Shown: positions 15,001-58,740 of the stretch, piece after piece
How positions within the stretch are numbered: the stretch's first letter is position 1
Layout of the letters: every line of letters begins with the position of its first letter
Assembly: GCA_965221365.1 (NCBI GenBank)
Contig: OZ244884.1
Coordinates: forward strand, 773,493 to 837,492
Origin: Nitrospirales bacterium
Lineage (GTDB): Bacteria; Nitrospirota; Nitrospiria; Nitrospirales; UBA8639
Direction: 5' to 3'
Length of the DNA stretch: 64,000 bases
Translations under genes and position numbers: made by a program
Notes under the pieces: model-generated
What the model saw: the letters and a program-made list of their open reading frames with translations, nothing else
Told to the model about the DNA's origin: nothing
Database searches by the model: none

Positions 15001-18000
15001 GAGGTCACCGTGTTGGTGTTCGCATCCGTCGCCGTTAACGTGTACTCGTAGGTGTTGCTGGTGTCACTGTCGGTCGGGGACTCAAAGTCCCGCGCCGCCA
15101 AGCTCACCCGCGCCCCGGTCTGACTCTGGTTCGCCGCCGGCAGCGTAAACTCGCCCGCATCCGCCCCGCCCAGCGTCCAGGTGACCGCACCCAACGCGCC
15201 GACTAAGGTCGCATCAATGGTGTAGGCCTGGTTCTCGCTCACACTGGCATCGGCCAGGCCCGTGAGCGTCAGCGTTGCGGTCTCGTTGACATTGGTAATG
15301 GTGATGGACACGCCGACGGTGGCGCTGTTGCTGTCATCGTCGGTGGCCGTGAGCGTGTACTCGTAAATATTGTCGGTATTGTTGTCCGTCGGGACCTCGA
15401 AGTCCTTCGCCGTCAGGGTCACGGTGGCGCCGGTGTTGGTCGCGTTCGACAGCACAAACCCGTTCGCGTTGGCGTCGTCACCGGTCAGGGACCAGGTGAT
15501 GTTGCCCACCGGCGTGCCAGTCAGGGTCGCATTGCCGGTGTAGGCCGCATTCTCGGCTTGGTCGGCATCGGCCACATCGCCGATGGTCAGGGTGGCCGCG
15601 ACGCGGATGTCAAACGTCAGCGTGACCGGATCCCCGTCCGCATCGGTTGCGGTGTACGTGTACTCCGTCGCCGCCTGAGGCACGGTCGGGGTGCCGGTGA
15701 TCTCCCGACTGCTCGCGCTGAACGCCAGGCCCGCGGGCAGCACCGGACTCAGGCTGTACGTCAGTGTCCCGTCACCGCCGGTGGCTTGGGGCAGGTTCAG
15801 CGTGGTGATGGCTGTGCCCTGGGTATAGGTCTGGTCGGGAATGGTCTGGGTGCCGAAGCTCGGCAGCGCATTCGCTGTGACCGCGACCGTGGCCGTGAGG
15901 CCGGCGTAGTTGCCGCCGGCGGCGGTCAAGGTGAGGGTCGCAGTGCCGTCGGTCGGGCTCGCCGCCATGTTCACGGTGACCGTCTGCGCGGTACTGTAGT
16001 TCGTGGCAGTGAATGTCAGCGGAGTCGGGCTGACTGTCACGTCCGTGTCGTCACTGGCCACGGTGACGGTGACCGAGGCGGTCGGGGCCGCGGCCAGGGT
16101 CACGTCAAAGGTGTTGCTGCCGCCCTCATCCACCTCCAGGGTGGCCGGTGCGACTTGGATGGCCGGGTCCGGTCTGGGGGTGGCCGTGGCCGTGGCTGCA
16201 GCGCCGTTGCCGGCGGTGTTGCTGGCCCGCACGGCAAAGGTGTAGCCCGTGCCGTTGGTCAGGCTCGTGGCCGTGTAGGTCGTGACGGTGGGGGCCAGAT
16301 TGGTCCACGTATCGGTGGTGTCATCAAACGGCAGGTCAGCCGTGGCCTTGTAGCGGACCTGGAGGTTGTCAATCGTGCTGGCGTTGGTCGGGTTGGTCCA
16401 GTTCAGCGTGACCGTGGTGTCGCCCGCGGTTGCAGTCAGGTTGGTGGGCGCGTCAGGGATAGGCAAGGTCGGGGTGGCGGTGGTCGTGGCGGCCGTACCG
16501 TCCCCGGCAGTGTTGCTGGCGCGCACCTCGAAGGTGTAGCCCGTGCCGTTGGTCAGGCCGGTCGCCGTGGTGGTCGTGGCCGTGACGGCAAGATCGGTCC
16601 AGGTGTCGGTGGCGACGAACGGCAGATTGGCGGTGGCCTTCCAGCGCACCTGGACCTTGTCAATCGTGCTGGCGTTGGTGGGCAGCGTCCAAGCCAGTGT
16701 CACCGTGGTGTCACCCGCCGTGGCGCTCAGCCCCGTCGGCGCGGCCGGAACGGCCAGCGCCGGCGTCACCGTGACCTCGTCCGACTCGGCCCCCTCGCCC
16801 TGCTCGTGGACCCCGCGCACCTTGAAGGTGTAGGTGGTGCCGTTGGTCAGCCCTGTCACGTCCTTGCCGGAAATCGACAAGGAAGCGCTGTCGGCGATGT
16901 CGGTCCAGGCGAGAGAGGTGCCGTCATCGCCAGTGTAGGTGTACTGCCACTTCAGGATCGCCGGCCCACGCTGCACCACCGTGGCCGCCAGCGTCACCTT
17001 CGCATCCCCGGCGGTTGCGGTGAAGCTGGACGGTTTCTCAAGCAGGTAGAGCGGCCTGCCGCTCAGACCATCACTGAGGTGACCGACCCATTCATCGCAG
17101 GCGAAGGAATGGACGAGCACACGGGCATCGTAAGTCGTGTCATCAAGCGTGACGGCAATCTCGTTGGGATTGTTAGTATTAATCGGGGTTTGCTGGTTGA
17201 TGGTGAAGCGCTTGTTGGTAACGCCATTACCAAGATTCTCAACAACTTCAAAGCTTCCGCTGTTGACGTCGTTATTGATAAGGGGGTTACCTTGCCAAGC
17301 GTCACCAGTCTTCTTGTATTGGACTAAGTAGCGCTCGACTGCACAAGAATTGCCCTTGCTCCAGCTCCAGACCACGTCGAGGTCGGTATCGTTGGTGCCC
17401 GGCCCCACGCTGACTATTGTTGGAGCGGGCGGCACCTCGTTGATTGACGGCACCTCCCACACCGTGTCCGAGGCATCGCTCTCACCGCCGGCATTTACCG
17501 CGCGGATCTGGAATGCGTATAGGAAGCCGTTGGTCAGGTTGTCAACGGTGTGGGTCGTGGTCGAGGCGCCGCTGGACGGGATATCCGCCCAGGACACGCT
17601 GTCCGGAATGTCCACAACGTTAACATCGTAGCGCACCTGGTACTTGGTGATGCTGGCGTTTTGCGGGTCTGTCCACGACAGTGTCACTTCGGCTTCGCCC
17701 GCTGCGGTGGTCAGGCCGGTGGGCGCGTTCGGGATCGGCGGCAATGGCGTGGCCGTGGTCGTGACGGCCGTCCCGTCCCCGGCAGTGTTGCTGGCGCGCA
17801 CGGCAAAGGTGTAGCCCGTGCCATTGGTCAGGCCCGTCGCCGTAGTGGTCGTGGCCGTGCCGGCAAGGTCGGTCCAGGTGTCGGCAGCGACGAACGGCAG
17901 ATTGGCGGTCGCCTTCCAGCGCACCTGCACCTTGTCAATCTCACTGGCGTTGGTCGGCAGCGTCCAGGCCAGGGTGGCCTCGGTGTCACCCGCCGTGGCG

Positions 18001-19964
18001 CTCAGCCCCGTCGGCGCGTTCGGGATCGGCAGCACCGGCGTCGCCGTGGTCGTGGCGGCCGTCCCGTCCCCGGCGGTGTTGCTGGCCCGCACGGCAAAGG
18101 TGTAGCCCGTACCATTGGTCAGGCCCGTCGCCGTAGTGGTCGTGGCCGTGCCGGCAAGGTCGGTCCAGGTGTCAGCAGCGACGAACGGCAGATTGGCGGT
18201 GGCCTTCCAGCGCACCTGCACCTTGTCAATCTCACTGGCGTTGGTCGGCAGCGTCCAAGCCAGGGTGGCCTCGGTGTCACCCGCCGTGGCGCTCAGTCCC
18301 GTCGGCGGGTCCGGGATCGGCAGCACCGGCGTCGCCGTGGTCGTGGCGGCCGTCCCGTCCCCGGCGGTGTTGCTGGCCCGCACGGCAAAGGTGTAGCCCG
18401 TACCATTGGTCAGGCCCGTCGCCGTAGTGGTCGTGGCCGTGCCGGCAAGGTCGGTCCAGGTGTCAGCGGCGACGAACGGCAGATTGGCGGTGGCCTTCCA
18501 GCGCACCTGCACCTTGTCAATCTCACTGGCGTTGGTCGGCAGCGTCCAGGCCAGGGTGGCCTCGGTGTCACCCGCCGTGGCGCTCAGTCCCGTCGGCGGG
18601 TCCGGGATCGGCAGCACCGGCGTCGCCGTGGTCGTGGCGGCCGTCCCGTCCCCGGCAGTGTTGCTGGCGCGCACGGCAAAGGTGTAGCCCGTGCCATTGG
18701 TCAGGCCCGTCGCCATAGTGGTCGTGGCCGTGCCGGCAAGGTCGGTCCAGGTGTCGGCAGCGACGAACGGCAGATTGGCGGTCGCCTTCCAGCGCACCTG
18801 CACCTTGTCAATCTCACTGGCGTTGGTCGGCAGCGTCCAGGCCAGGGTGGCCTCGGTGTCACCCGCCGTGGCGCTCAGCCCCGTCGGCGCGTTCGGGATC
18901 GGCAGCACCGGCGTCGCCGTGGTCGTGGCGGCCGTCCCGTCCCCGGCGGTGTTGCTGGCCCGCACGGCAAAGGTGTAGCCCGTACCATTGGTCAGGCCCG
19001 TCGCCGTAGTGGTCGTGGCCGTGCCGGCAAGGTCGGTCCAGGTGTCAGCAGCGACGAACGGCAGATTGGCGGTGGCCTTCCAGCGCACCTGCACCTTGTC
19101 AATCTCACTGGCGTTGGTCGGCAGCGTCCAGGCCAGGGTGGCCTCGGTGTCACCCGCCGTGGCGCTCAGCCCCGTCGGCGCGTTCGGGATCGGCAGCACC
19201 GGCGTCGCCGTGGTCGTGGCTGCCGTCCCGTCCCCGGCAGTGTTGCTGGCGCGCACGGCAAAGGTGTAGCCCGTGCCATTGGTCAGGCCCGTCGCCATAG
19301 TGGTCGTGGCCGTGCCGGCAAGGTCGGTCCAGGTGTCGGCAGCGACGAACGGCAGATTGGCGGTGGCCTTCCAGCGCACCTGCACCTTGTCAATCTCACT
19401 GGCGTTGGTCGGCAGCGTCCAGGTCAGGGTGGCCTCGGTGTCACCGGCCGTGGCGCTCAGCCCCGTCGGCGCGTTCGGGATCGCCAGCGTCGGGGTGGCC
19501 GTGGCAAGGGCATGGATGCTGTTGCCGACGCTATTGGTGGCGCGCACCTCGAAGGTGTAGGCCGTGCTGTTGGTCAGGCCCTCCACCGTGTGGCTCGTGG
19601 TCGTAGCGTTGCTGCCCGGAACGTCAGGCCAGTGCTGATTCAACGCACCAGCTTGGTAGCGAAACTGGTACTTGGTGATGGTGCTGTCACCCGGGTCGTT
19701 CCAGGTCAGGGTCACCTTAGTGTCGCCAGCAGTCGCAACGAAATTCGCCGGCTTGGCCGGCACGGATTGCGCCAGCAGCGACTGGGGGCTGAGTAGCACC
19801 AGGGCGAAGCCCAAGACCGGCCAGACCCATTGCAGGGGTCCATGCAGACTCAGGCAGCCTCGCCCGCCGCGCGTGCGAGATGGGGATTCTACGCCCGCCT
19901 TCATGGCAGCCGGGTTACCCCCCCCCCCGCTGATGCGATGGGGAAAATGTCCATTTCTACTCAT
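1..19964 (-). CDS. Giant secreted repeat-rich surface protein, 5' portion only (>=6,654 codons in window; 3' end lies left of position 1)
   Basis: ATG at 19964 (in-frame TGA 8 codons upstream; second in-frame ATG at 19904). No track ORF lies in this minus frame (top coordinate = 2 mod 3), as expected if it reaches the window edge without a stop. Hand translation at 19964-19500, 17459-17041, 15410-15276, 7778-7320, 1052-540 and 59-1 is stop-free. It reads as a signal peptide (..WVWPVLGFALVLLSPQSLLA/QS), then FN3-like units (AGDxxVTLxW..P....I.KYQ/VR........W.D.....T.HTVTGLTNGTxYxFxVRA.N..G), He_PIG-type Ig units (LP.ATGG.G.LTYSL.P..PAGL.FD...RTLTGTP....AT.YTYT.TD.DGD) and cadherin-like units (AKDFEVPTDNNTDNIYEYTLTATDDDSNSATVGVSITITNVNE). 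The long + strand track ORFs (e.g. 2847-7700) are its codon-aligned antisense. Confidence 0.85.
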   Translation of the reverse strand, partial: MSRNGHFPHRISGGGGNPAAMKAGVESPSRTRGGRGCLSLHGPLQWVWPVLGFALVLLSPQSLLAQSVPAKPANFVATAGDTKVTLTWNDPGDSTITKYQFRYQAGALNQHWPDVPGSNATTTSHTVEGLTNSTAYTFEVRATNSVGNSIHALATATPTLAIPNAPTGLSATAGDTEATLTWTLPTNASEIDKVQVRWKATANLPFVAADTWTDLAGTATTTMATGLTNGTGYTFAVRASNTAGDGTAATTTATPVLPIPNAPTGLSATAGDTEATLAWTLPTNASEIDKVQVRWKATANLPFVAADTWTDLAGTATTTTATGLTNGTGYTFAVRASNTAGDGTAATTTATPVLPIPNAPTGLSATAGDTEATLAWTLPTNASEIDKVQVRWKATANLPFVAADTWTDLAGTATTTMATGLTNGTGYTFAVRASNTAGDGTAATTTATPVLPIPDPPTGLSATAGDTEATLAWTLPTNASEIDKVQVRWKATANLPFVAADTWTDLAGTATTTTATGLTNGTGYTFAVRASNTAGDGTAATTTATPVLPIPDPPTGLSATAGDTEATLAWTLPTNASEIDKVQVRWKATANLPFVAADTWTDLAGTATTTTATGLTNGTGYTFAVRASNTAGDGTAATTTATPVLPIPNAPTGLSATAGDTEATLAWTLPTNASEIDKVQVRWKATANLPFVAADTWTDLAGTATTTTATGLTNGTGYTFAVRASNTAGDGTAVTTTATPLPPIPNAPTGLTTAAGEAEVTLSWTDPQNASITKYQVRYDVNVVDIPDSVSWADIPSSGASTTTHTVDNLTNGFLYAFQIRAVNAGGESDASDTVWEVPSINEVPPAPTIVSVGPGTNDTDLDVVWSWSKGNSCAVERYLVQYKKTGDAWQGNPLINNDVNSGSFEVVENLGNGVTNKRFTINQQTPINTNNPNEIAVTLDDTTYDARVLVHSFACDEWVGHLSDGLSGRPLYLLEKPSSFTATAGDAKVTLAATVVQRGPAILKWQYTYTGDDGTSLAWTDIADSASLSISGKDVTGLTNGTTYTFKVRGVHEQGEGAESDEVTVTPALAVPAAPTGLSATAGDTTVTLAWTLPTNASTIDKVQVRWKATANLPFVATDTWTDLAVTATTTTATGLTNGTGYTFEVRASNTAGDGTAATTTATPTLPIPDAPTNLTATAGDTTVTLNWTNPTNASTIDNLQVRYKATADLPFDDTTDTWTNLAPTVTTYTATSLTNGTGYTFAVRASNTAGNGAAATATATPRPDPAIQVAPATLEVDEGGSNTFDVTLAAAPTASVTVTVASDDTDVTVSPTPLTFTATNYSTAQTVTVNMAASPTDGTATLTLTAAGGNYAGLTATVAVTANALPSFGTQTIPDQTYTQGTAITTLNLPQATGGDGTLTYSLSPVLPAGLAFSASSREITGTPTVPQAATEYTYTATDADGDPVTLTFDIRVAATLTIGDVADADQAENAAYTGNATLTGTPVGNITWSLTGDDANANGFVLSNATNTGATVTLTAKDFEVPTDNNTDNIYEYTLTATDDDSNSATVGVSITITNVNETATLTLTGLADASVSENQAYTIDATLVGALGAVTWTLGGADAGEFTLPAANQSQTGARVSLAARDFESPTDSDTSNTYEYTLTATDANTNTVTSAAYTVTVTDVDEAPAKPANLTATAGDTEVTLTWANPNDSTITKYQVRYGAGSTVPATATWGDITGSGATTTTHTVDTLTNGTTYAFQVRAVVGTANGPDSDTVTATPRPDPAIQVSPATLEVDEGGSATFDVTLAAAPTASVTVTVASDDTDVTVSPTSLTFTATNYNTAQTVTVNMAASPTDGNATLTLTAAGGNYAGLTATVSVTANALPTFGTQTIPDQTYLQNSAITQLDLPQATGGDAPLTYTFTPTAPAGLTFDATARTLTGTPTTAQGATEYTYTVTDGDGDVAELKFNITITADNLPDFGTQTIADQTYLQNSAITQLDLPQATGGDAPLTYTFTPTAPAGLTFDATARTLTGTPTTAQAATEYTYTVTDGDGDTASLTFNITIEAPPAPAAPTGLAATAGDTTVTLNWTDPSDTSITKYQVRYGAGSTVPATATWDDIDPSDDQTTSHVVTGLTNATQYAFEIRAVNANGNSDASSTVTATPALAVPDAPTNLTAFVGGNQVTLSWTNPTNASSLTNLQVRYKATADLPFDDTTDIWTNLPATRTYFDAYNLTESTEFRFQVRATNSAGNGEASEVSVTTGTVPGVEDITRHMPTTSPTNADTLTWQVVFSELVLYGQAGGPGAYEVAYDPPIANAPTLVANRLGAARRCRIRGDAGLAFSVELYGGDLANYNGTVTMTLKSDGVIRNCASVAVRDRTPTGTNDNTFVVDNVAPTVAITGVSGTVTAAVDATFTFSEPVTGFELGDITLTNADATEFAQSGTGAGAVYTAKITPKDAGEFSVGVAAGAAQDAAGNDNAAATTVTAQYNPAPSFAAGVTIADQTYAQNAAIATLNLPEATGGNGTLTYSLAPAAPAGLAFDATARTLTGTPTTAQSATAYTYTATDADGDTASLTFNITVTADTQAPRVASIVRHDPPTSPTNAVTLTWRVTFSEAVVNVSDDDFHVRGTDGTETATAVGTDGTTWDVNVAGGNLVVLAGTVNLEFVQGQDIEDTAGNALTDTTPTGTNDDTYLLDRTPPHVTSIHRYDSETGNTDAKSPTNRDSVQWAVQYNESMRHSGAGSAAAYTVTFVPAITQEPTLTVTPGADDPNTCGVYAPYVVNISGGALAGYNGTATLTLNHAEVTDCVGNTLRDRTPPRGNQITYELDNTVPTVAITGVSGTVNAAVDATFTFSESVTGFEAGDITLTNADASDFAQPDPAAPVYTAKITPKAAGEFSVAVAASVAQDAAGNDNAAATTVTAIYKELEPPAKPRNFTAVAGDTEVTLIWADPGDDSITKYQIFDFESAGIDLWDDIPGSGADTITHTVTGLTNGTEYTFQIRAVAGSLPGDASDAIKATPQVAVPDAPENLTATAGDRSVSLSWDLPTNASVLDKVQVRHQARGETTWEPWTDLAADATTHTVTNLKNGQDYLFEVRAESASGTGPAARTAGRPELAVPGAPTGLSATAGNAEVDLNWTLPTNTSEIVTVQVRWKATVDLPFDDARDAWTDLPSSAATSHKVTGLTNGTGYTFQVRATNKAGNGEPATGAATPRAPPLVTPGAPTNLSTVPGDTEVVVLWTLPTNTSQIDSVELRHKVKTAPDTGWSAWTSLAGTAERSRVTGLVNGTDYLFEVRAVNTAGTGPSASVEGTPKLAKPSAPSNLQASAGDTQVTLTWDLPDKGTVDTIDVRHKKKTDTSWSQWTLLAKDATTHTETGLDNGVSYEFEVRATNTAGSSDSVAVAAQPKLAVPDAPGNLTAAAGDGAVALTWDLPTNTSEIDKMQVAYRESGAANYLPWVDLAKDATSYDVTGLTNGTEYNFIVRALNGAGRGAEAKVDATPEAGPGKVPSAPADLAATAGDTQVTLTWTHARDNSITKYQVRYIEGASVPDSEPWTDIAGSNAGTTGHTVTGLANGKQHAFEIRAVNADGPGAASAVTATPKLAIPDAPGNLTAAPGDGKVGLTWDLPTNTSEIDRMQVAYKLKSAANFQPWVDLAKDATSYEVTGLTNGTEYTFIVRALNGAGRGAVAEVDATPVAVPTAPTGLAAAPGDTQVVLSWTLPTNSGALTKVQARHKADTAKQWQAWVDLAANATTHTVTGLTNGELYNFEVRAENASGPGAAASVSATPVPPLVAPGAPTKLSAVPGDTEVVVLWTLPTNTRQIDSVELRHKVKMAPDTGWSQWTSLAGTAERSRVTGLVNGTDYLFEVRAVNAAGTGPSASVEGTPQLAKPSAPSNLQASAGDTQVTLTWDLPDKGTVDTIDVRHKKKTDTAWSLWTLLAKDATTHTETGLDNGVTYEFEVRASNLAGSSDSVAVAAQPKLAVPEAPTSLTATAGNAQVELSWTLPTNASVIGAVQVRWKATADLPFTASDAWTDLAGTATAYTATGLTNGTGYTFEVRATNTAGDGPAATVAATPMAPPTQARTLTYTFSDNGSTVTIAASGSLDASSFNFDRVGVPADLSRIRMNDTEIWGIHPPNSIPIKRYDSLPDFVTTGETSYGGTSELENMVNYSSSYYIRFSTYSKYLEMDSANFTGDIYQIANGAATFDGTLQSTLGDNDFDIEFAIGNQKIVFQTANPATVPNAPTGLAATAGNAQVDLAWTNPNDSNITRYQVRYGAGSTVPTTANWEDITGSGAGTTSHTVSGLTNETEYAFEIRAVNARGNSAASDTATATPEADTTPSFGTETIADQNYTRNTAIATLTLPEATGGNGTLTYSLTPNAPAGLNFDATNRTLTGTPTATQNATAYTYTVTDADGDTASLTFNIAVAPPNNPPVVDKAIPDAELNEGKSGTVDLSAVFSDPDKDPLTFSAVSSDTTQVTVAVNGSTLTYTSVSAGKPTVTVTADDGRGGTVSTTFTVTVHGLPNDPPIVAKEIEDLTLSVGESRDVDVSLVFNDPDKDPLTYTASSDDTSKATVTVKDATVTVVGVAAGTSTVTVTADDNKAGTVDDEFVVTVEADVAPSFGTETIADQTYTQNTAIATLNLPEATGGNRTLTYSLTPNAPAGLNFDATNRTLTGTPTATQNATAYTYTATDADGDAVSLTFNIAVAPPNNPPVVDKAIPDAELNEGKSGTVDLSAVFSDPDKDPLTFSAVSSDTTQVTVAVNGSTLTYTSVSAGKPTVTVTADDGRGGTVSTTFTVTVHGLPNDPPIVAKEIEDLTLSVGETRDVDVSLVFNDPDKDPLTYTASSDDTSKATVTVKDATVTVVGVAAGTSTVTVTADDNKAGTVDDEFVVTVEADVAPSFGTETIADQTYTQNTAIATLTLPEATGGNGTLTYSLSPNAPAGLNFDATNRTLTGTPSAVQDATQYTYTVTDADGDTASLTFNITIAKAVEPPAKPRNFTAVAGDTEVTLIWADPGDDSITKYQIFDFESAGIDLWDDIPGSGADTITHTVTGLTNGTEYTFQIRAVAGSLPGDASDAIKATPQVAVPDAPENLTATAGDRSVSLSWDLPTNASVLDKVQVRHQARGETTWEPWTDLAADATTHTVTNLKNGQDYLFEVRAESASGAGPAARTAGRPELAVPGAPTGLSATAGNAEVDLNWTLPTNTSEIVTVQVRWKATVDLPFDDARDKWTDLPSADATSHKVTGLTNGTGYTFQVRATNTAGNGEPATGAATPRAPPLVTPGAPTNLSTVPGDTEVVVLWTLPTNTSQIDSVELRHKVKTDPDTGWSQWTSLAGTAERSRVTGLVNGTDYLFEVRAVNTAGTGPSASVEGTPELAKPSAPSNLQANAGDTTVTLTWDLPDKGTVDTIDVRHKKRADTSWSQWTLLAKDATTHTETGLDNGVPYEFEVRASNTAGSSDSVAVAAQPKLAIPDAPGNLTASAGDGAVALTWDLPTNTSEIDKMQVAYRESGAANYLPWVDLAKDATSYDVTGLTNGTEYNFIVRALNGAGRGAEAKVDATPEAGPGKVPSAPADLTVTVGDTKVTLAWTQSRDSSITKYQFRYAEGASVPGTESWTDIAGSGAGTTGHEVTGLTNDTLHAFEVRAVNADGAGAASAVTATPQVAVPDAPDNLTATAGDRSVSLSWDLPTNASVLDKVQVRHQARGETTWEPWTDLAADATTHTVANLKNGQDYLFEVRAESASGTGPAARTAGRPELAVPSAPADLAATAGDTQVTLTWTHARDNSITKYQVRYIEGASVPDSEPWTDIAGSNAGTTGHTVTGLTNGKQHAFEVRAVNADGAGAASAVTATPKLAIPDAPGNLTAAPGDGKVGLTWDLPTNTSEIDRMQVAYKLKSAANFQPWVDLAKDATSHEVTGLTNGSEYTFIVRALNGAGRGAVAEVDSTPVAVPTAPTGLAAAPGDTQVVLSWTLPTNSGVLTKVQARHKADTAKDWEAWVDLAANATTHTVTGLTNGELYNFEVRAENASGPGAAASVSATPVPPLVAPGAPTKLSTVPGDTEVVVLWTLPTNTRQIDSVELRHKVKMAPDTGWSQWTSLAGTAERSRVTGLVNGTDYLFEVRAVNTAGTGPSASVEGTPQLAKPSAPSNLQASAGDTTVTLTWDLPDKGAVDTIDVRHKKKTDTSWSQWTLLAKDATTSTVTSLDNGVTYEFEVRASNLAGSSDSVAVAAQPKLAVPDAPTSLTATGGNTQVELSWTLPTNASVIGAVQVRWKATADLPFTASDAWTDLAGTATAYTATGLTNGTGYTFAVRATNTAGNGEAATAAATPMAPSTPARTLTFTFSDDGSTVTIAGSGSLDVSGFGNPSNTTLRLGSGIEGIQFNDSARWQIHPPNLDSTPVSRFSSLPNITTTGLNTYSGTSQYESPSNYNRDFTFWLGTFYGELEIDQANLTGNTYDLTGKNVTFSGTLLSTLGDNDFHIELAIGNQKIIFKATPPPPVPAAPANLAAAPGDTEVTLSWNNPNDSSITKYQLRQAQGATVPGSTAWADITGSGAGTTSHTVTGLTNGQQYAFQIRAVNNAGNSDASDTVTATPRVDTDPSFGTETIADQNYTRNTAIATLTLPEATGGNGTLTYSLSPNAPAGLNFDATNRTLTGTPSAVQDATQYTYTATD
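543..1007 (-). other. Unrecognised ~155-aa module inside the giant protein, copy 1 (visibly lower GC than flanking FN3 units)
   Basis: Hand translation: TLTFTFSDDGSTVTIAGSGSLDVSGFGNPSNTTLRLGSGIEGIQFNDSARWQIHPPNLDSTPVSRFSSLPNITTTGLNTYSGTSQYESPSNYNRDFTFWLGTFYGELEIDQANLTGNTYDLTGKNVTFSGTLLSTLGDNDFHIELAIGNQKIIFKA. It matches no motif I recognise. Confidence 0.7.
1000..5045 (-). repeat. Segmental duplication copy A (block of about 14 FN3 units)
   Basis: Track ORFs recur in copy B at constant offsets: 1402/8164, 1675/8437, 2368/9130 (offset 6762) and 3220/9409, 3691/9880, 3964/10153, 4261/10450, 4573/10762 (offset 6189). Copy A has 573 extra bp. This equals the distance between two copies of TCGGCGGGCGCGGACGG at 2719-2735 and 3292-3308. 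Confidence 0.85.
5100..6780 (-). repeat. Two tandem copies of an 840-bp block (one He_PIG-like unit plus two Ig/cadherin-like units)
   Basis: Track ORF pairs 5299/6139, 5506/6346 and 5713/6553 are all offset by 840 bp. The first pair is identical and the second differs by one residue. A third partial He_PIG-like copy follows at about 6780-6990, and another lies at the window start (1-210). Confidence 0.85.
7320..7769 (-). other. Unrecognised ~150-aa module inside the giant protein, copy 2
   Basis: Hand translation: TLTYTFSDNGSTVTIAASGSLDASSFNFDRVGVPADLSRIRMNDTEIWGIHPPNSIPIKRYDSLPDFVTTGETSYGGTSELENMVNYSSSYYIRFSTYSKYLEMDSANFTGDIYQIANGAATFDGTLQSTLGDNDFDIEFAIGNQKIVFQ. The ends are conserved with copy 1 and the centre has diverged. 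Confidence 0.7.
7760..11235 (-). repeat. Segmental duplication copy B (block of about 12 FN3 units)
   Basis: See copy A. Translations of 4573.. and 10762.. are identical over 158 codons (about 474 bp). Similarity ends at about 5045/11235, where the flanks diverge. Confidence 0.85.
13790..14350 (-). repeat. Two tandem 279-bp He_PIG-like units
   Basis: Track ORFs 13720-14052 and 14065-14331 end 279 bp apart and share a near-identical 70-residue C-terminal translation. Confidence 0.8.
14340..14690 (-). repeat. Dispersed duplicate of an Ig-like module (partner at about 15840-16190)
   Basis: Track ORFs 14506-14751 and 16003-16245 (offset 1497 bp) share nearly identical translations over about 60 residues. 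Confidence 0.75.
15840..16190 (-). repeat. Dispersed duplicate of an Ig-like module (partner at about 14340-14690)
   Basis: See partner feature. Confidence 0.75.
17815..19560 (-). repeat. Six tandem 291-bp (97-codon) near-identical FN3 units
   Basis: Out-of-frame track ORFs end at 18105, 18396, 18687, 18978, 19269 and 19560 (constant 291-bp spacing). Translations of 18115-18396 and 18406-18687 are identical. 17818-18105 and 18691-18978 differ by one residue, which suggests an 873-bp (3-unit) higher-order repeat. Confidence 0.9.
19918..19928 (-). repeat. G11 homopolymer (C11 on + strand) in the 5' end of the giant gene
   Basis: Read directly: ..gggttaCCCCCCCCCCCgctgatg.. on + strand. Sense-strand position is +37..+47 relative to ATG 19964 and -24..-14 relative to ATG 19904. 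Confidence 0.9.
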
Positions 19965-23529: not shown

Positions 23530-25315
23530 TGATTCGTCATTCCTGCGCATGCCCCCTTCCGTCGAACACGCACACACCACCAATCGTCATCCCCGACGTT
23601 TTTAATCGGGGATCCAGGGCTTTTTCTCTTTCCTTTGTTTCCTGGATGCCGGATCGGGGTCCGGCATGACGGTTGGGGGGGATGCCATGTCGAGTCCGGC
23701 ATGACGGTTGTGGGGCCTTTGCGTCCTTCCCCGACGCGCCCCATTCGTCGCACACGCACCTTCTTCGTCATTCCTGCGAAGACCTCCATTCGTCATCCGC
23801 ACGCGCTCCAATCGTCATTCCCGCGAAGACCACCAATCGTCATCCCCGTGAAGACCACCATTCGTCATCCGCACGCGCTCCAATCGTCATTCCCGCGAAA
23901 GCGGGAATCCAGGGTCGTTGCCTTTCCTTTTTTCTGGATGCCGGATCGGGGTCCGGCATGACGGAGGGGGGGGGGATGCCATGTCGAGTCCGGCATGACG
24001 TTGAGGGGGATGCCCGTCGCAACCGCACACACCACCAATCGTCATCCCCGACGTTTGTAATCGGGAATCCAGAGTCGTTGCCTTTCCTTTTTTCTGGATG
24101 CCGGATCAAGTCCGGCATGACGGTGGGGGGGGGATGCCATGTCGAGTCCGGCATGACGTTGAGGGGGATGCCCGTCGCAACCGCACACACCACCAATCGT
24201 CATCCCCGACGTTTGTAATCGGGAATCCAGAGTCGTTGCCTTTCCTTTTTTCTGGATGCCGGATCAAGTCCGGCATGACGGTGGGGGGGGGATGCCATGT
24301 CGAGTCCGGCATGACGTTGGGGGCCTTTGCGTCATTCCCCCACGCGCCCCATCCGTCGCACACGCGCCTTCTTCGTCATTCCTGCGAAGACCTCCATTCG
24401 TCATCCGCACGCGCTCCAATCGTCATTCCCGCGAAAGCGGGAATCCAGGGCCGTTGCTTTTTCCTTTTTTTCTGGATGCCGGATCAAGTCCGGCATGACG
24501 GAGGGGGGGGGGATGCCATGTCGAGTCCGGCATGACGTTGGGGGCCTTTGCGTCCTTCCCCGACGCGCCCCTTCCTTCGCACACACACCTTCTTCGTCAT
24601 TCCTGCGAAGACCTCCATTCGTCATCCGCACGCGCTCCAATCGTCATTCCCGCGAAAGCGGGAATCCAGGGTCGTTGCCTTTCCTTTTTTCTGGATGCCG
24701 GATCGGAGTCCGGCATGACGAAGGGGGGGATGCCCGTCGCACCCGCACACACCACCAATCGTCATTCCCGCGAAAGCGGGAATCCAGGGTTGTTGCTTTT
24801 CCTTTTTTCTGGATGCCGGATCGAGTCCGGCATGACGGAGGGGGGCCTGTGGTTTTTCTGGATGCCGGATCGGGGTCCGGCATGACGGAGGGGGCCTGTG
24901 GTTTTTCTGGATGCCGGATCGGGGTCCGGCATGACGGAGGGGCCTGTGCGTCATTCCCCGACGCGCCCCATTCGTCGCACACGCACCTTCTTCGTCATTC
25001 CTGCGAAGACCTCCATTCGTCATCCGCACGCGCTCCAATCGTCATTCCTGCGAAGACCACCATTCGTCATCCCCGACGTTTGTAATCGGGGATCCAGGGT
25101 CGTTGCCTTTTCCTTTCTTTCTGGATGCCGGATCGGAGTCCGGCATGACGGTGGGGGCCTGTGGTTTTTCTGGATGCCGGATCGGGGTCCGGCATGACGG
25201 AGGGGGGGATGCCATGTCAGAGCCCGGCATGACGGAGAGGGACGCGAGGTCAAGGCCCGACATGACGGTGGGGACGGCATGGCGAATGAAGGGCATGACG
25301 AAGAGAGGGCGTAAC
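23530..25315. repeat. Array 1 (1.8 kb) of the modular nested-palindrome repeat family, between divergent trmI and nfeD-like genes
   Basis: Dozens of modules in these forms:
- CGTCAT-TCCCGCGAAAGCGGGA-ATCCAGG
- CGTCAT-CCCCGACGTTTGTAATCGGGG-ATCCAGG
- pyrimidine-rich spacer (e.g. GTCGTTGCCTTTCCTTTTTT)
- CTGGAT-GCCGGATCGGGGTCCGGC-ATGACGG
- GATGCCATGTCGAGTCCGGC-ATGACG. Confidence 0.9.
24036..24351. repeat. 158-bp tandem duplication of a composite repeat unit inside array 1
   Basis: CAATCGTCATCCCCGACGTTTGTAATCGGGAATCCAGAGTCGTTGCC.. starts at both 24036 and 24194. About 135 bp are identical in the two copies, each including a G9 run. Confidence 0.85.
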
Positions 25316-25332
25316 GAAGAGGGGCTGTTTTC

Positions 25333-25361
25333 TTGACAGTCTTCGGAGGGGATCGTAAGAT
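25333..25361 (+). promoter_or_regulatory. Candidate sigma70-type promoter for the nfeD-like/stomatin operon
   Basis: TTGACA (25333-25338), 17-nt spacer, TAAGAT (25356-25361). AGGAGG follows at 25371-25376. Confidence 0.5.
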
Positions 25362-32664: not shown

Positions 32665-33735
32665 GGCGTCATCGGGGACCCGGCATGACGTTGTGGGCCT
32701 TGAGTCGTCATTCCCGACGCGCGTGCCATCCGTCATACACACGCGCCCAATCGTCATTCCCGCGAAAGCGGGAATCCAGGGCCGTTGCTTTTTCCTTTTT
32801 TTCTGGATGCCGGATCGGAGTCCGGCATGACGGTGAGAGGGATGCCAGGTCGAGGTCCGACATGACGTTGGGGCCTTGAGTCGTCATTCCGCGTCCCCGT
32901 CCGTCGCACCCGCGCACACGCCCCAATCGTCATTCCCGCGAAAAGCCTGCCCTCGACGTTTTTAATCGGGGGCGGGAATCCAGGGCCTTTGCCTTTGCCT
33001 TTTCCTCTGGATGCCGGGTCAGGCCCGGCATGACGGTGGGGGTCTGCCGTCATTATCGCACGCGCTCCGTCATTTCCATGAAGGCCCCCATTCGTCATTC
33101 CCGCGCGCCCCATCCGTCATTCCCGCGAAAACCACCAATCGTCATCCCCGACGTTTGTAATCGGGGATCCAGTGTTTTTTCTTTTTCCTTTCTTCCTGGA
33201 TGCCGGATCGAGTCCGGCATGACGAATGAGGCCTGTGGTTTTTCTGGATGCCAGGTCGAGTCCGGCATGACGTTGGGGCCTTGAGTCGTCATTCCGCGTC
33301 CCCGTCCGTCGCACCCGCGCACACGCGCCCAGTCGTCATTCCCGCGAAGGCGGGAATCCAGGACCGTTGCTTTTTCCTTTTTTTCTGGATGCCGGATCAA
33401 GTCCGGCATGACGGTAAGAGGGATGCCAGGTCGAGTCCGGCGTGACGGAGGGGAGGCCAGTGCGTCATTATCGCGCGCGCTCCGTCATTCCCGCGAAGAC
33501 CACCAATCGTCATCCCCGACGTTTGTAATCGGGGATCCAGGGCAGTTGCTTTTTCCTTTTTCTCTGGATGCCGGATCGGGGTCCGGCATGACGAATGAGG
33601 CCTGTGCCTTTTCCTTTTTCTGGATGCCGGATCGGAGTCCGGCATGACGGAGAGAGGGATGCCGGGTCGGAGCCCGGCATGACGGAGAGGGATGCCGGGT
33701 CAGTCACGGCATGACGACTGGGCGTGACACGGACG
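32665..33735. repeat. Array 2 (about 1.1 kb) of the nested-palindrome repeat family
   Basis: Same modules as array 1. It includes the 108-nt composite element at 32928-33035. Confidence 0.9.
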
Positions 33736-39204: not shown

Positions 39205-39545
39205 TCCGTCATTCCCGGACGCCTGCTCCACACCCCACGTGTCCTCGTCCGCCATTCTCGCGTCTCGCTCCGTCATTCCCGACGCGCCCGAGTTCGTCAT
39301 TCCCGCGAAAGCGGGAATCCAGGTCTTTGCTTTTTCCTTTTTTCCTGGATGCCGGATCGGGGTCCGGCATGACGGTTGGAAGCCTGCCGTCATTATCGCA
39401 CGCGCTCCGTCATTTCCATGAAGGCCCCTGTTCGTTATTCCCGCGCGCCCTCGTCTGTCATTCCCGTGAAGGCCCCTGTTCGTTATTCCTGCCAATGCCC
39501 TTTCCGTCATTCCCGCGAAAAGCCCCATTCGTCATCCCTGACGTT
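39205..39545. repeat. Array 3 of the nested-palindrome repeat family
   Basis: CGTCATTCCCGCGAAAGCGGGAATCCAGG...CTGGATGCCGGATCGGGGTCCGGCATGACGG plus degenerate CGTCAT modules. Confidence 0.85.
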
Positions 39546-39621: not shown

Positions 39622-39825
39622 ATGGCAGTGATGCTTTCCAAGACGTACGAAGCATTTCGGGCGGCAGGCGCTCCAGATGACAAGGCGTGTGAAGCAGCCG
39701 AAGAGATCGCTGCGTTTGAAATTCGGTTGGCCAGCATCGAAAACCGACTTATACGTCTTGAAGTTCTGATAACTATTGTCCTTACCGGGGTCGTGAGTCT
39801 TGTAGTCAAAACCTTCCTTGCGTGA
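39622..39825 (+). CDS. Small coiled-coil protein with C-terminal TM helix (67 aa)
   Basis: MAVMLSKTYEAFRAAGAPDDKACEAAEEIAAFEIRLASIENRLIRLEVLITIVLTGVVSLVVKTFLA. The track start (TTG 39571) is unlikely. The gene sits in a low-GC segment between two repeat arrays. It recalls DUF1640-type proteins (memory only). Confidence 0.5.
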   Translation: MAVMLSKTYEAFRAAGAPDDKACEAAEEIAAFEIRLASIENRLIRLEVLITIVLTGVVSLVVKTFLA

Positions 39826-39854: not shown

Positions 39855-40035
39855 TCCCTTCTCTTTTCCTGGATGCCGGATCGGGGTCCGGCATGACGGT
39901 TGGTGCTTTTTCTTTTCTCTGGAATGCCGGATCAAATCCGGCATGATGAATTGTACGGATCCGGTATGACGTGTGGTCAGTGCCCGGCATGACGAATGGC
40001 GCCCGTGGTTTCCCTGGGTGCCGGGTCGGGAACCA
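39855..40035. repeat. Array 4 of the nested-palindrome repeat family
   Basis: CTGGATGCCGGATCGGGGTCCGGCATGACGG, then degenerate GCCGGATCAAATCCGGCATGATG and GCCCGGCATGACG modules. Confidence 0.85.
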
Positions 40036-47087: not shown

Positions 47088-47850
47088 CCGTCATTCGCGA
47101 GAAGCCCCCCATTCGTCATCCCTGCGGCTCTCGTCGTCATTCCTGCGAAGACCCCCAATCGTCATCCCTGCGGCTCTCGTCGTCATTCCTGCGAAGACCC
47201 CCAATCGTCATCCCCGCCAATGCCCCTTCCGTCATCCCCGACGTTTGTAATCGGGGATCCAGGGCTTTTGCTTCTTCCTTTTTTCTGGATGCCGGATCGG
47301 AGTCCGGCATGACGGAGAGGGATGCCAGGTCGAGTCCGGCATGACGTTGAGGCCCTTGAGTCGTCATTCCGCGTCCCCGTCCGTCGCACCCGCACACGCC
47401 CCCAATCGTCATTCCCGCGAAAAGCCTGCCCTCGACATCTTTAATCGGGGGCGGGAATCCAGGGCCTTTGCCTTTTCCTTCTTCTGGATGCCGGATCGGA
47501 GTCCGGCATGACGACTGAAGGCCTGTGGTCCGTCATTGCTATGAAGACCACCATTCGTCATCCCCGACATTTTTAATCGGGGATCCAGGGCCTTTGCTTT
47601 TTCCTTTTTCTGGATGCCGGATCGGGGTCCGGCATGACGGAGAGGGATGCCAGGTCGAGCCCGGCATGACGGAGAGGGATGCCAGGTCGAGCCCGGCATG
47701 ACGACTGAAGGCCTTGAATCGTCATCCCCCGACGCGCCCAATCCGTCGCACCCGCCTCCAATCGTCATTCCCGCGAAAGCGGGAATCCAGGGTCTTTGCC
47801 TTTTCCTTCTTCTGGATGCCGGATCGGGGTCCGGCATGACGGAGAGGGAT
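47088..47850. repeat. Array 5 of the nested-palindrome repeat family (forward orientation)
   Basis: Modules as in array 1. It includes the 107-nt composite element at 47407-47513. Confidence 0.9.
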
Positions 47851-48011: not shown

Positions 48012-48272
48012 ATGCCAAGAAGAAGCATTTCTATCACAGAAACACATAATGAATGGCTGAAAGCCCAAGTTGCGAGCGGACAATATCGCTCGGAAAGTGA
48101 AGTCATCAGCGATCTTATCCGGGACCGACAAAACCGGGACGCGGGCGTCGAGGCCATTCGCCTTGCGCTGATCGAAGACGAGAAATGCGGCCCCGGCACC
48201 CCCACGACTGAAAACGTCCGAACTGCGGTGCAGGAGCGATTACGGAAAAGCGGCCCGCTGCCCATTCAGTAA
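48012..48272 (+). CDS. ParD-type ribbon-helix-helix antitoxin-like protein (no cognate toxin gene adjacent)
   Basis: ISITETHNEWLKAQVASGQYRSESEVISDLIRDRQNRDAGVEAIRLALIEDE matches the ParD (COG3609-type) pattern from memory. GGAGA lies 6 nt upstream of the ATG. Confidence 0.75.
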   Translation: MPRRSISITETHNEWLKAQVASGQYRSESEVISDLIRDRQNRDAGVEAIRLALIEDEKCGPGTPTTENVRTAVQERLRKSGPLPIQ

Positions 48273-48483
48273 TCCCTTGCCGACTCGGATCGCCGCGGCA
48301 AATACGGAGTCCTGCCATATTCAGGATTGAGACCAAGCAGAGAAGAGGTCTACAGTTCAACTTATCCGGCACCCCGACCTTTCTGAAAATCGGCATAGAC
48401 GTCGACCGGAACGGGTCTTGACTGTCGATGCATCGCATGATGAACCCGACGCGGCAGATGAGGAATGCTAATGGAGAAAGCTG

Positions 48484-49743: not shown

Positions 49744-50369
49744 CCAGAAAAAACCTCATTGTTCTCGCAGCCGATAAAAACATCGAATATGCTCTGAAAG
49801 GACTGTTCAGCAGACCCGAAGCACTCGGAATCCGTCGAATTGAGACGGAGATTTTCATTCATCCCCGCCGTGACCCCGGGTGCGTGCAAGACGGCGTTGC
49901 ATTTCTGTCCAACTTCTCGGAGCAATATGACTACGGTCTGCTCATGTTTGATTATGCAGGAAGTGGGAAAGAGCGAAAGCAACAGCCCAAGGAGTTACAG
50001 GAGCTGCTGAACCATGAATTGGACGGTTCGGGATGGCATGGGCGAGCCAAGACAATCGTGTTGTTGCCGGAGATTGAGGCGTGGATCTGGAGTGATTCTC
50101 CCCACGTTCCCGACGTGGCAGGATGGAAGCGTCGGCAGCCGTCACTTCGACAATGGCTGATTGAGCAAGGCTGGCTCGAAAAAGATGCCGTCAAACCCAA
50201 TCAACCAAAAGAGGCGTTCCTGGCAACCTTGCGCGAGGCTCGCACGCAGCGCAGTGCATCCCTGTATCAGCAGATTGCGGAAAAAGTTTCCTTACGTCGA
50301 TGCAAGGATCATTCGTTTCAGGAATTCAGAGACATTCTGAGAGCCTGGTTCCCACAAGAGAGCCAATGA
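49740..50369 (+). CDS. Small partner of the ATPase (209 aa), possibly DUF4276-like
   Basis: ATGA start/stop overlap with the ATPase gene. Motifs LIVLAADKNIEYAL, LLMFDYAGSG and LLPEIEAWIWSD. The family assignment is from memory and unverified. Confidence 0.7.
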   Translation: MTRKNLIVLAADKNIEYALKGLFSRPEALGIRRIETEIFIHPRRDPGCVQDGVAFLSNFSEQYDYGLLMFDYAGSGKERKQQPKELQELLNHELDGSGWHGRAKTIVLLPEIEAWIWSDSPHVPDVAGWKRRQPSLRQWLIEQGWLEKDAVKPNQPKEAFLATLREARTQRSASLYQQIAEKVSLRRCKDHSFQEFRDILRAWFPQESQ

Positions 50370-50438
50370 TGAGTAACAACTGACGTCACACGTTGCGGAT
50401 TGCCGGAAAATACAACCGCAGAACACGGCAAGCGGGGC

Positions 50439-51983: not shown

Positions 51984-52034
51984 TGAAGTCCTTTGCGCTG
52001 CCATGCGCGGCCTCGGTTGCTGGAAGAGGGCGCG

Positions 52035-52400
52035 GGGATGACGATTCAAGAGCCTCATCCGTCATGTCGGACTCCGATCCGGCACCAGAAAGACTGAAAG
52101 ACAAGACAAAGAAAAAGCCCTGGATTCCCGCGTTCGCGGGAATGACGTATTTGGACGCCGGACTCCTCCATTCGTCATGCCGGCCCTGACCTGGTGGCCA
52201 GAAAAGCAAAGGCACCAGTCGTCATGCCGGACCCCGATCCGGCATCCAGAAAAAAGGGAAAAGCAAAGACCCTGGATTCCCGCCCCCGATTAAAAACGTC
52301 GAGGGCAGGCTTTTCGCGGGAATGACGGATCGGGGCATTGGCGGGGATGACGAATGGTGGTCTTCGCGGGAATGACGAACTGGGCGTGCGGGAATGACGG
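52035..52400. repeat. Array 6 of the nested-palindrome repeat family (reverse orientation)
   Basis: CCGTCAT-GTCGGACTCCGATCCGGC-ACCAG...CTGGAT-TCCCGCGTTCGCGGGA-ATGACG and related modules. Confidence 0.9.
52208..52327. repeat. 120-bp perfect direct repeat, copy 1 (copy 2 at 53320-53439)
   Basis: Character-by-character comparison shows AAAGGCACCAGTCGTCATGCCGGACCCCGATCCGGCATCCAGAAAAAAGGGAAAAGCAAAGACCCTGGATTCCCGCCCCCGATTAAAAACGTCGAGGGCAGGCTTTTCGCGGGAATGACG is identical at both sites. Confidence 0.9.
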
Positions 52401-52500
52401 GCTGGGGGGACTCAAAAGTCGATCGATTCCATCGATGTGGTGCACTCGATTCGTTCTGCCACTCTATGGTCCACGCCCTACAGCCTGCCTTGTGGAGGCC

Positions 52501-52546
52501 TTGAAACGACTCATTCCTTAATGTAATAATTTCTTACATCCTTACA
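52501..52546 (+). promoter_or_regulatory. Candidate promoter/operator of the AbrB-PIN cassette
   Basis: TTGAAA (52501-52506), 17-nt spacer, TAATAA (52524-52529). The inverted repeat ATGTAA/TTACAT (52521-52526 / 52534-52539) overlaps the -10. A second TTACA lies at 52542-52546. Confidence 0.45.
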
Positions 52547-53302: not shown

Positions 53303-53485
53303 GCATGCGGGAATGACGGAAAGGCACCAGTCGTCATGCCGGACCCCGATCCGGCATCCAGAAAAAAGGGAAAAGCAAAGACCCTGGATTCCCGCCCCCG
53401 ATTAAAAACGTCGAGGGCAGGCTTTTCGCGGGAATGACGATTGGGACGCGTGAGGTGTGGAGGGGCATGCGCGGGGATGACGAAT
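53303..53485. repeat. Array 7 of the repeat family (contains copy 2 of the 120-bp perfect repeat, 53320-53439)
   Basis: See 52208-52327. The 3' extension ATTGGGACGCGTGAGGTGTGGAGGGGCATGCGCGG is shared with array 8. Confidence 0.9.
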
Positions 53486-54282: not shown

Positions 54283-54540
54283 TGGAGGCCGGACTCCTCC
54301 ATTCGTCATGCCGGACCCTGATTCGGCATCCAGGGGAAAAAAGAAAAAGTAAAAGCCCTGGATCCCCGCCCCCGATTAAAAAAGTCGAGGGCAGGCTTTT
54401 CGCGGGAATGACAATTGGGACGCGTGAGGTGTGGAGGGGCATGCGCGGGAATGACAGACTGGGCGCCGGGAATGACTGAAGGGGCGTGCGAAAGGGACAA
54501 GGCCTTGCAGGAATGACGGACGGGGGATCGGGATGCCAGG
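54283..54540. repeat. Array 8 of the repeat family (diverged third copy of the 120-bp element at about 54303-54411)
   Basis: CGTCATGCCGGACCCTGATTCGGCATCCAGGGGAAAAAAGAAAAAGTAAAAGCCCTGGATCCCCGCCCCCGATTAAAAAAGTCGAGGGCAGGCTTTTCGCGGGAATGAC. Confidence 0.85.
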
Positions 54541-56507: not shown

Positions 56508-56755
56508 ATCCGTCATGCCGGACTTGATTCGGCGCCAGAAAAAAGAAAAGGCAAAGGACCTGGATTCCCGCTTTCGCGGGAATGACGTATTTGGAGGCCG
56601 GACTCCTCCAGTCGTCATGTCGGACGCGGTCCGGCGCCAGAAAGACTGAAAGACAAGACCAAGAAAAAGCCCTGGATCCCCGATTACAAACGTCGGGGAT
56701 GACGAATGGGGGCGTGCGCGGGAATGACGGATCGGGGCATTGGCGGGGATGACGA
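56508..56755. repeat. Array 9 of the repeat family (reverse orientation)
   Basis: CCGTCATGCCGGACTTGATTCGGCGCCAG...CTGGATTCCCGCTTTCGCGGGAATGACG ... CTGGATCCCCGATTACAAACGTCGGGGATGACG. Confidence 0.9.
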
Positions 56756-56803
56756 GATACACCCAATGCTCTGTCATGGCCCAGGGTCTGCACAGACGGG
56801 GCT

Positions 56804-58584: not shown

Positions 58585-58740
58585 CTTTGCTTTTTCTTTT
58601 TTCTGGATGCCGGATCAAGTCCGGCATGACGGTGGGGGATACCGGATCGGAGTCCGGCATGACGACTGCTCGCCTGTGGTCTTCTGGATGCCAGGTCGGA
58701 GTCCGGCATGACGGATTGTAGGTATCCGGCAGGACGGCAG
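58585..58740. repeat. Array 10 of the repeat family (forward orientation)
   Basis: CTTTGCTTTTTCTTTTTTCTGGATGCCGGATCAAGTCCGGCATGACGG ... CTGGATGCCAGGTCGGAGTCCGGCATGACGG. Confidence 0.85.

Follow-up and report, generated by a model that had tools for sequence, protein, structure and literature searches.

Intergenic hairpin arrays in the genome of a Nitrospirales bacterium probably belong to the NTS/SRM repeat family

A 64-kb stretch of the genome of a Nitrospirales bacterium (contig OZ244884.1), hereafter called the window, carries ten arrays of short hairpin-forming repeats between its genes. The arrays, which together occupy about 5.1 kb, are placed beside genes for a methyltransferase, NfeD, PTR2, hydantoinase B, and ParC- and ParE/GyrB-like proteins. 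We conclude that these repeats are real, exceed chance expectation, and very probably belong to the hairpin family of the Neisseria Transformation Sequence (NTS) and the Ssn-related motifs (SRM). This family includes the Neisseria repeat dRS3, and the arrangement of the repeats resembles that of NIMEs (neisserial intergenic mosaic elements). NIMEs are reportedly arrays of dRS3 separated by RS elements, a description ascribed to Parkhill in 2000.

The modules of the arrays were collected by a pattern search of the window for GTCA, a hairpin and TCCAG. This search yielded 46 simple modules, all of which are located within 23.5-58.7 kb. Between GTCA and TCCAG, at least 6-7 paired positions were found in 46 of 46, and the stems fall into three classes: A (TCCCGC-GAAA-GCGGGA), B (CCCCGA-CGTTTGTAA-TCGGGG) and C [GCCGGA-(5-6 nt)-TCCGGC]. 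The 5′ flank CGTCAT is common to all modules. The type A module at positions 23885..23912 (plus strand), CGTCATTCCCGCGAAAGCGGGAATCCAG, is one of 10 copies. The type B module at 23585..23617 (plus strand), CGTCAT-CCCCGA-CGTTTTTAA-TCGGGG-ATCCAG, has the flanks of type A and a different hairpin. Type C, for example GTCAT-GCCGGA-CCCCGA-TCCGGC-ATCCAG at 23642..23670 (minus strand), is the commonest module of the window and the right-hand member of every doublet. Five further modules are nested, with a B-like hairpin within the loop of a type A hairpin. These are located at 32929..32983 and 47408-47462 on the plus strand and at 52272-52326, 53384-53438 and 54358-54412 on the minus strand, and bring the full modules to 51, in ten clusters over 35 kb. 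Comparable nested hairpins were seen in other lineages (loci L005, L024, L084 and L248).

Within the arrays, 23 complete doublets were found, each consisting of a left hairpin (A, B or nested), a spacer of 21-24 nt (78-96% pyrimidine) and an inverted type C module. The left/right design is fixed in these doublets: A, B or nested modules always stand opposite C. The doublet at 23885..23962 (plus strand), a type A module followed by a 21-nt pyrimidine-rich spacer and an inverted type C module, corresponds to the "~80-nt unit" of an earlier description made from the letters of the window only (the sequence-only reading). The module grammar given there (CGTCAT, hairpin, ATCCAG and an inverted partner) was reproduced by the 46 simple modules and 23 doublets. 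The partial and tandem units mentioned there are also real. Orphan 5′ half-units, composed of CGTCAT, the 5′ stem arm and a C-rich linker, recur about every 25 nt at 23765..23899 (plus strand), upstream of a full module. Tandem Repeats Finder detected periods of 25, 33-37, 49, 158 and 221 nt within the arrays (25, 37, 49, 158 and 221 nt in array 1), and the internal super-units of 158 and 221 nt are 93-97% identical to one another.

Array 1 (23530..25315) is the largest, with 17 full modules and many half-units. It is located between the divergent methyltransferase (minus strand) and NfeD (plus strand) genes, and promoter-like sites are present at both of its edges. Array 2 (32668..33716) possesses 11 simple modules and 1 nested module between the PTR2 and hydantoinase B genes, both on the minus strand. 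Array 3 (39208..39545) terminates in a truncated type B 5′ half at 39527. About 320 nt beyond it, across a gap with an open reading frame (ORF) of 67 aa, array 4 (39869..39995) contains right-hand (type C) units. Array 5 (47089..47845; 7 simple modules and 1 nested) is downstream of the ParC-like gene. The doublets of array 6 (52042..52399) run in the opposite orientation to those of arrays 1-5. Array 7 occupies 53317..53482, and arrays 8 (54304..54476) and 9 (56511..56773) stand upstream and downstream of the ParE/GyrB-like gene, respectively. Array 10 (58600..58715) contains type C units; the left half of its doublet is missing, though it is present in a sister strain.

Clusters of GTCAT-bearing units at 23535-25300, 32667-33716, 39207-39531, 39897-39994 and 47089-47841 (arrays 1-5) and at the coordinates given above for arrays 6-10 agree with the ten arrays of about 5 kb that the sequence-only reading had placed in the window. 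Its statement that the arrays fill nearly every intergenic gap was overstated, since a full module is present in only 9 of the 19 gaps that are 100 nt or longer. The full modules themselves are all intergenic (0 of 51 inside a called gene). Many arrays are directly downstream of genes, and the units occur in both orientations relative to the neighboring genes.

The 28-nt NTS, CGTCATTCCCGCGMAVGCGGGAATCYRG, which contains dRS3, was described by Chenal et al. (2025, Nat Commun 16:2388; PMC11893778), together with the degenerate class of SRM, of which NTS is the founding member. In that report, a single-domain GIY-YIG nuclease of 94 aa, SsnA, binds NTS hairpins and cuts them. SsnA is active on single-stranded DNA alone, on one strand, and does not act on double-stranded DNA or RNA; binding and cutting only of single strands was shown for four homologues. 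The cut site is a few nucleotides upstream of the motif. Cutting is governed by three bases upstream of the palindrome and binding by the C directly after it, while the loop is dispensable. When the palindrome was altered with the hairpin kept, the Neisseria enzyme did not cut. The same report shows that the motifs and ssn homologues are spread over many phyla, that NTS copies are intergenic and clustered, and that 81% of the genomes with more than 200 SRMs carry a cd10448-type single-domain GIY-YIG (ssn) gene. The ssn genes frequently stand between copies of the motif, in the manner of an insertion sequence (IS), an analogy raised in the paper itself.

We compared the window with these published definitions. 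The exact NTS consensus was found 10 times, 8 times on the plus strand and twice on the minus strand, and the type A module, which includes dRS3, is identical to it. The signature ATTCCCN8GGGAAT, which is the Neisseria dRS3 repeat and a building block of NIMEs (Bentley 2007; PMC1797815), gave 10 matches against 0.01 expected, and the right-hand module pattern 9 matches against 0 expected. The published SRM pattern HGTCWYN(0-2)YYVSBRHN(0-5)WNVSBRGN(0-2)RNCYNB matched only the 10 type A modules (0.66 matches in shuffled sequences). The other traits of NTS/SRM are also found in the window: oriented, non-palindromic flanks around a hairpin, many copies, intergenic location and clustering. By sequence, hairpin, copy number and location, the repeats are members of this family. 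Arrays 1 and 2 contain 4 and 2 dRS3 sites, respectively, among other modules, as in NIMEs.

On the model of dRS3 in Neisseria, which serves the integration of filamentous Nf prophages, the arrays could be read as hotspots of recombination. The 10 dRS3 sites of the window speak for this model, as do the documented role of dRS3 as a phage integration target (PMC11893778) and the proposal that NIME arrays are substrates of recombinases (PMC1797815). However, none of the arrays of the window has an integrase, an IS110-type gene or a prophage next to it, and the model leaves the conserved oriented flanks and the hairpin types B and C unexplained. We regard it as quite improbable as the explanation of the arrays; moreover, it is compatible with membership in the NTS/SRM family and not an alternative to it.

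The family is widely distributed. The exact NTS 27-mer GTCATTCCCGCGWWWGCGGGAATCCAG was found in at least 120 stretches of one-genome-per-species contigs. Among the hosts are Alpha-, Beta-, Gamma- and Deltaproteobacteria, lineages of the Candidate phyla radiation, Dehalococcoidia, Chloroflexia, Phycisphaerae, Nitrospirae, Bacteroidetes, Actinomycetes and a Rickettsia endosymbiont, with Sphingopyxis, Lysobacter and Pseudomonas among the cultured ones. The same 27-mer is present in 74 stretches of IMG/VR viral contigs. In metagenomes, the type C module was detected in at least 120 stretches, usually as the right partner of a left module of the GTCATTCCGGCGAAAGCCGGAATCCAG type. In contrast, the exact type B pattern had no match in the metagenome contigs; thus, type B looks specific to this lineage. 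None of the fetched loci resembled the window outside the repeats. The sequence-only reading had supposed the family to be widespread yet poorly described. The first part is correct. The second is not: type A matches the NTS consensus exactly, and both the name of the family and the characterization of its partner enzyme date from 2025 (PMC11893778). A match with a family that already has a name is an outcome which the sequence-only reading had itself listed as refuting it.

The arrangement of the modules in other genomes was also analyzed. A convergent inverted partner was found within 200 nt of 70 of the 138 NTS copies, and a divergent partner in 9. The spacer between convergent partners was 8-172 nt (median 33). 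Orphan 5′ half-sites were present directly upstream of the full NTS in 10 of 132 copies, against 0-1 for three other configurations; the tandem half-sites stand on the side where Ssn cuts. Runs of half-sites at a spacing of about 20-25 nt, each made of GTCATTCCCG and a C-rich linker (about 7-10 nt), were observed in unrelated phyla (L019, L025, L038, L063, L073, L092, L112 and L113). In many metagenome loci, a doublet occupies the exact center of a longer inverted repeat, of which at least three outer families were distinguished by eye, with ends ...ttgaattgcgacacagtct, ...tttataaacagactctaatt and ...ttaattgccggagtaata. Such loci are L200, L205, L206, L224, L226, L240 and L249; L207, L212, L228, L233, L248 and L253; and further L204, L210, L216, L222, L230, L234, L236 and L246. 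These central doublets are either composite miniature inverted-repeat transposable elements (MITEs) with a common doublet core, or doublets inserted into the loops of other palindromes. Nested modules, central doublets and half-site runs hint at insertion into hairpin loops and at scars of cutting and repair, but do not prove them.

To find ssn-like ORFs in the fetched loci, a hidden Markov model (HMM) was built from two seeds. Five ssn-like ORFs of 97-109 aa were detected; three were scanned against Pfam, and each matched PF01541 alone. In L139, an IMG/VR viral contig, NTS, ssn and an inverted NTS form a clean unit at 2948-3377. The ssn stop codon of L043 lies within the inverted right-hand module, and the ORF of L042 is flanked by or adjoins NTS/SRM modules. 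In L247, a forward type C module is located 19 nt upstream of the ssn-like start codon. This position ties the commonest variant of the window to the NTS/Ssn system. In another viral contig, L173, an NTS match and an ssn-like ORF (9969-10334) are about 7 kb apart. When the 11,010 ORFs of 312 loci (about 2.2 Mb) were clustered, no transposase or other family stood out near the modules; the large clusters comprised families of a generic kind, related prophage genes or spurious translations of the repeats.

These results bear on the suggestion of the sequence-only reading that the modules are repetitive extragenic palindromic (REP) sequences in bacterial interspersed mosaic elements (BIMEs), or REP doublets (REPINs), kept by a REP-associated tyrosine transposase (RAYT), i.e., an IS200/IS605-type Y1 HUH transposase. 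Inverted doublets clustered in mosaic arrays do resemble REPINs and BIMEs, and the motif is a single-stranded DNA hairpin with a conserved 5′ flank. However, the sequence is that of NTS, and all modules have CGTCAT as the 5′ flank, not a flank of the GTAG type. As that reading had noted, the window contains no RAYT-like or other transposase gene, and no Y1 transposase. No transposase family recurs in the 312 loci either, and the gene flanked by modules there is the GIY-YIG gene, not the module-flanked RAYT that was expected. Thus, the kinship holds insofar as this is a modular, palindromic, intergenic family, and fails as to the partner, which is a GIY-YIG nuclease of single-stranded DNA; maintenance of the repeats by a RAYT is barely credible.

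The sequence-only reading had further proposed that the ~80-nt unit folds into a closing stem with three arms. For one 87-nt unit, a four-way junction was indeed predicted, with an outer stem, a pair of hairpin arms and, closing the spacer, an inner stem (as DNA, -20.8 kcal/mol, z -3.15; as RNA, -37.9 kcal/mol, z -2.3). This topology arises automatically when two motifs, each with invariant flanks, stand inverted to each other. For the covariation test, the partner modules of NTS in other genomes were picked by their flanks alone. A full 8-bp stem was found in 48 of the 91 partners, against about 0.05% of the shuffled controls, with compensatory changes at stem positions 2, 3 and 6-8 (for example, T-A to C-G or G-C at positions 2 and 3). 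Since the partner stem is often unlike the NTS stem, the conserved pairing is local and not between the arms. Covariation thus supports only two of the three proposed arms, the local hairpins; the long-range stems are invariant flanks without covariation, the spacer varies from 8 to 172 nt, and the four-way junction is not a conserved structure.

The predicted RNA fold, together with the many arrays directly downstream of genes, would suit units that are transcribed as structured RNA, such as a cloverleaf-like small RNA, a terminator or an mRNA-stabilizing element. We consider this very improbable. No match at the Rfam gathering thresholds and no tRNA-like call by ARAGORN were obtained, and no terminator-like T tract is present inside array 1. 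Moreover, the units are found in both orientations relative to the neighboring genes, their spacer length differs between genomes, and their long-range stems lack covariation, being invariant flanks. The characterized protein partner does not bind RNA (PMC11893778).

To investigate the turnover of the arrays, the orthologous intergenic regions of a sister strain from another sample (contigs L317 and L318; genes 97-99% identical to those of the window) were compared. The source samples of the two strains are ERZ26695579 and ERZ25072258. All 8 of the 8 orthologous arrays differed in length and module content. The array 1 region is 1900 nt in the window versus 671 nt in the sister strain, the array 2 region 1472 nt versus 1067 nt, and the array 5 region (after ParC) 934 nt versus 505 nt. 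The alignments revealed single 33-nt units gained or lost in register, duplicated blocks, a doublet that lacks its left half, and swapped modules; array 9 showed block indels and module swaps. The indels are bounded by repeat units and the changes occur only within existing arrays, with no clean transposon-like insertions. Such turnover agrees with slippage or unequal recombination between direct repeats, which has also been put forward for NIMEs (PMC1797815).

A bias by replication strand was considered as well, because the doublets of arrays 6-9, close to a weak minimum of the cumulative GC skew, run opposite to those of arrays 1-5. This candidate was dropped, since the doublet orientation of array 10 is again that of arrays 1-5 and the orientation of NTS was not linked to the local GC skew in 92 loci of other genomes (52 against 40, p = 0.25-0.37).

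Several points weigh against the assignment to an Ssn-associated hairpin family as set out so far. The published SRM pattern misses types B, C and nested, i.e., 41 of the 51 full modules; types B and C keep the GTCAT...ATCCAG flanks, with other stems or longer loops. Given the loss of cutting on a change of the palindrome (PMC11893778), it may be that types B and C depend on different Ssn paralogues or escape cutting altogether. Neither the 64 kb of the window nor the 2.5 kb that L001 adds to it gave a GIY-YIG (ssn) gene with tblastn (E up to 50), a GIY-YIG regular expression or an iterated HMM. The sister-strain contigs have low coverage (3.6-6x), and some of the array differences could be assembly errors. 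Finally, we infer the mode of array growth, slippage or recombination versus transposition, from the indel boundaries only.

Taking NTS/SRM membership as the starting point, we propose the following explanation. Each module is a hairpin with an 8-bp stem, formed in single-stranded DNA and bracketed by GTCAT on the 5′ side and, on the 3′ side, by the C within TCCAG. The modules stand mostly tail-to-tail in inverted doublets of about 80 nt (left A, B or nested, a pyrimidine-rich spacer, and inverted C). These doublets share their ends with the IS-like unit of module, ssn gene and inverted module found in other genomes, and resemble a miniature form of it without the gene. Doublets, orphan 5′ half-sites and degenerate right-hand hairpins are amplified and reshuffled into NIME-like arrays. 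The amplification is probably driven by replication slippage or unequal recombination between the numerous short direct repeats, which would account for the strong differences of the arrays between near-identical strains. A cognate Ssn is presumably encoded elsewhere in the genome, and the modules would be cut by that Ssn.

The doublets might instead be active selfish elements of the MITE type, derived by loss of the gene from an IS-like module-ssn-module unit and mobilized in trans by Ssn through a single-stranded DNA intermediate, with arrays growing mainly by repeated insertion and less by recombination or slippage. The doublet ends are the ends of the ssn-bearing units in L139, L043 and L247, like the shared terminal inverted repeats of MITEs; the exact NTS 27-mer is common to very distant phyla and to the 74 stretches of viral contigs, a distribution that implies horizontal spread; and nested hairpins and doublets centered in longer palindromes look like loop insertions. 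GIY-YIG nucleases are not known to have strand-transfer activity. The strain differences are unit-bounded indels, block duplications and swaps, not clean insertions with target-site duplications; the boundaries of the elements are ambiguous, and no ssn gene is nearby in the window. Although the IS analogy is raised in PMC11893778, cleavage is all that is shown there. We therefore consider active mobility of this kind possible but doubtful.

A more far-reaching model is speculative, and we rate it as unlikely in its entirety. In this model, the inverted doublets would be the self-propagating, gene-less form of the IS-like hairpin-ssn-hairpin element, and Ssn would be a new kind of mobilizer. 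The elements would spread from phylum to phylum. Insertion would occur preferentially into exposed hairpin loops, which would give nested modules and doublets at the center of longer palindromes. The tandem 5′ half-sites would be scars left by repair after repeated cuts directly upstream of the hairpin, and the left (A/B) and right (C) hairpins would be served by different Ssn specificities.

The repeats have consequences for annotation. The ORFs of 56, 40 and 171 aa that gene callers placed inside arrays (24715-24885, ~25214-25336, and 4943-5458 of L317) have no Pfam match and are translations of the repeats. Thus, the repeats are mis-annotated as hypothetical proteins, as the sequence-only reading had suspected, the 40-aa and 56-aa ORFs being called in array 1. 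The strings VIPAKAGIQ, FRGNDG and AGMT listed there follow directly from the module sequence; a literature search for the repeat peptide strings returned nothing relevant. Annotators should treat such arrays as NTS/SRM repeats, regard ORFs with VIPAKAGIQ, SFPRKRESS, FRGNDG or AGMT as spurious, and mask the ~5 kb concerned.

The 67-aa ORF between arrays 3 and 4 (39622-39825, plus strand; MAVMLSKTYEAFRAAG...) possesses a good ribosome-binding site, a predicted coiled-coil and hydrophobic tail, and has no Pfam match. It lies in ~320 nt of low-GC DNA between the truncated type B 5′ half at 39527 and a spacer with type C at 39869, and it looks as if it were placed at the spacer position of a doublet (module-gene-module).

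Other features of the window are as follows. A giant gene at about 2019-19964 (minus strand) encodes a protein of 5,981 aa that carries fn3 and He_PIG repeats. Its GC content is ~70%, versus ~58-60% elsewhere, and it contains many internal repeats of 279-300 nt, among them seven units of 291 nt at 17.6-19.6 kb that are nearly identical; the plus-strand ORFs listed across it are artefacts. The type IIA topoisomerase pair (44680-47079 and 54574-56490) scores between the GyrA/GyrB and ParC/ParE models, passing the broad subfamily cut-offs only and failing the specific equivalog cut-offs for either enzyme. Between the two genes, an accessory island of reduced GC content (48012-54216, GC 52-55%) carries genes for ParD, an AAA_21 ATPase and its 209-aa partner, a protein with pentapeptide repeats, and two pairs, MazE-like/PIN and HigB/HTH. 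The island of the sister strain is without the AAA_21 pair, and a DUF4258 gene replaces HigB. An MlaA lipoprotein gene suggests an outer-membrane bacterium. The window is continuous on the 2.19-Mb NCBI contig and split over ctg112945 and ctg115524 in the ENA assembly ERZ26695579.

NIME-like arrays, once thought to be Neisseria-specific, thus appear at very high density and with quick turnover between strains in an unrelated, uncultured bacterium. For Ssn biology, the leads are two hairpin variants outside the published pattern, the fixed left/right doublets, the nested hairpins and the half-sites on the cut side. These could help to settle if Ssn elements move and in what way the arrays expand.

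Compared with REPs, BIMEs and REPINs, the modules are likewise single-stranded DNA hairpin repeats in inverted doublets and mosaic arrays, with a small partner gene flanked by the repeats. In contrast, the partner is a GIY-YIG protein and not a Y1 HUH transposase, the flank is GTCAT and not GTAG, and the NTS sequence is common across phyla, whereas REPs are typically species-specific. With IS200/IS605 elements, the repeats share subterminal hairpins recognized on one single-stranded DNA strand and a very small encoded protein. However, the left- and right-end hairpins are on the same strand there and inverted here, and neither a Y1 transposase nor TnpB is present.

With NIMEs, the arrays share the dRS3 signature, long intergenic arrays in which GC-rich hairpins alternate with spacers of lower GC, and strain-variable repeat number and length. 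NIME arrays were stated to be absent outside Neisseria (PMC1797815), and the present genome is without Neisseria hallmarks: the Neisseria DNA uptake sequence GCCGTCTGAA does not occur in the window, and the GC content outside the giant gene is 52-63%, versus ~50% for Neisseria. Whereas NIMEs comprise more than 100 RS families, the spacers of the window form one conserved pyrimidine-rich family. The arrays had been called unusually long, but Neisseria arrays of the same kind (PMC1797815) show that their length is not unprecedented.

The closest known system is that of NTS/SRM. It differs in that the host here is uncultured, has a GC content of ~58-60%, lacks DNA uptake sequences and carries no ssn gene in 64 kb, and in that types B, C and nested are outside the published SRM search pattern. 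The available part of the text of PMC11893778 mentions no strict left/right doublet design, runs of 5′ half-sites or density of 51 full modules per 35 kb. In common are the 28-nt consensus, exact in type A, the hairpin with oriented flanks, the multicopy, intergenic and clustered occurrence across phyla, and, in loci from other genomes, the modules that flank or adjoin ssn-like genes.

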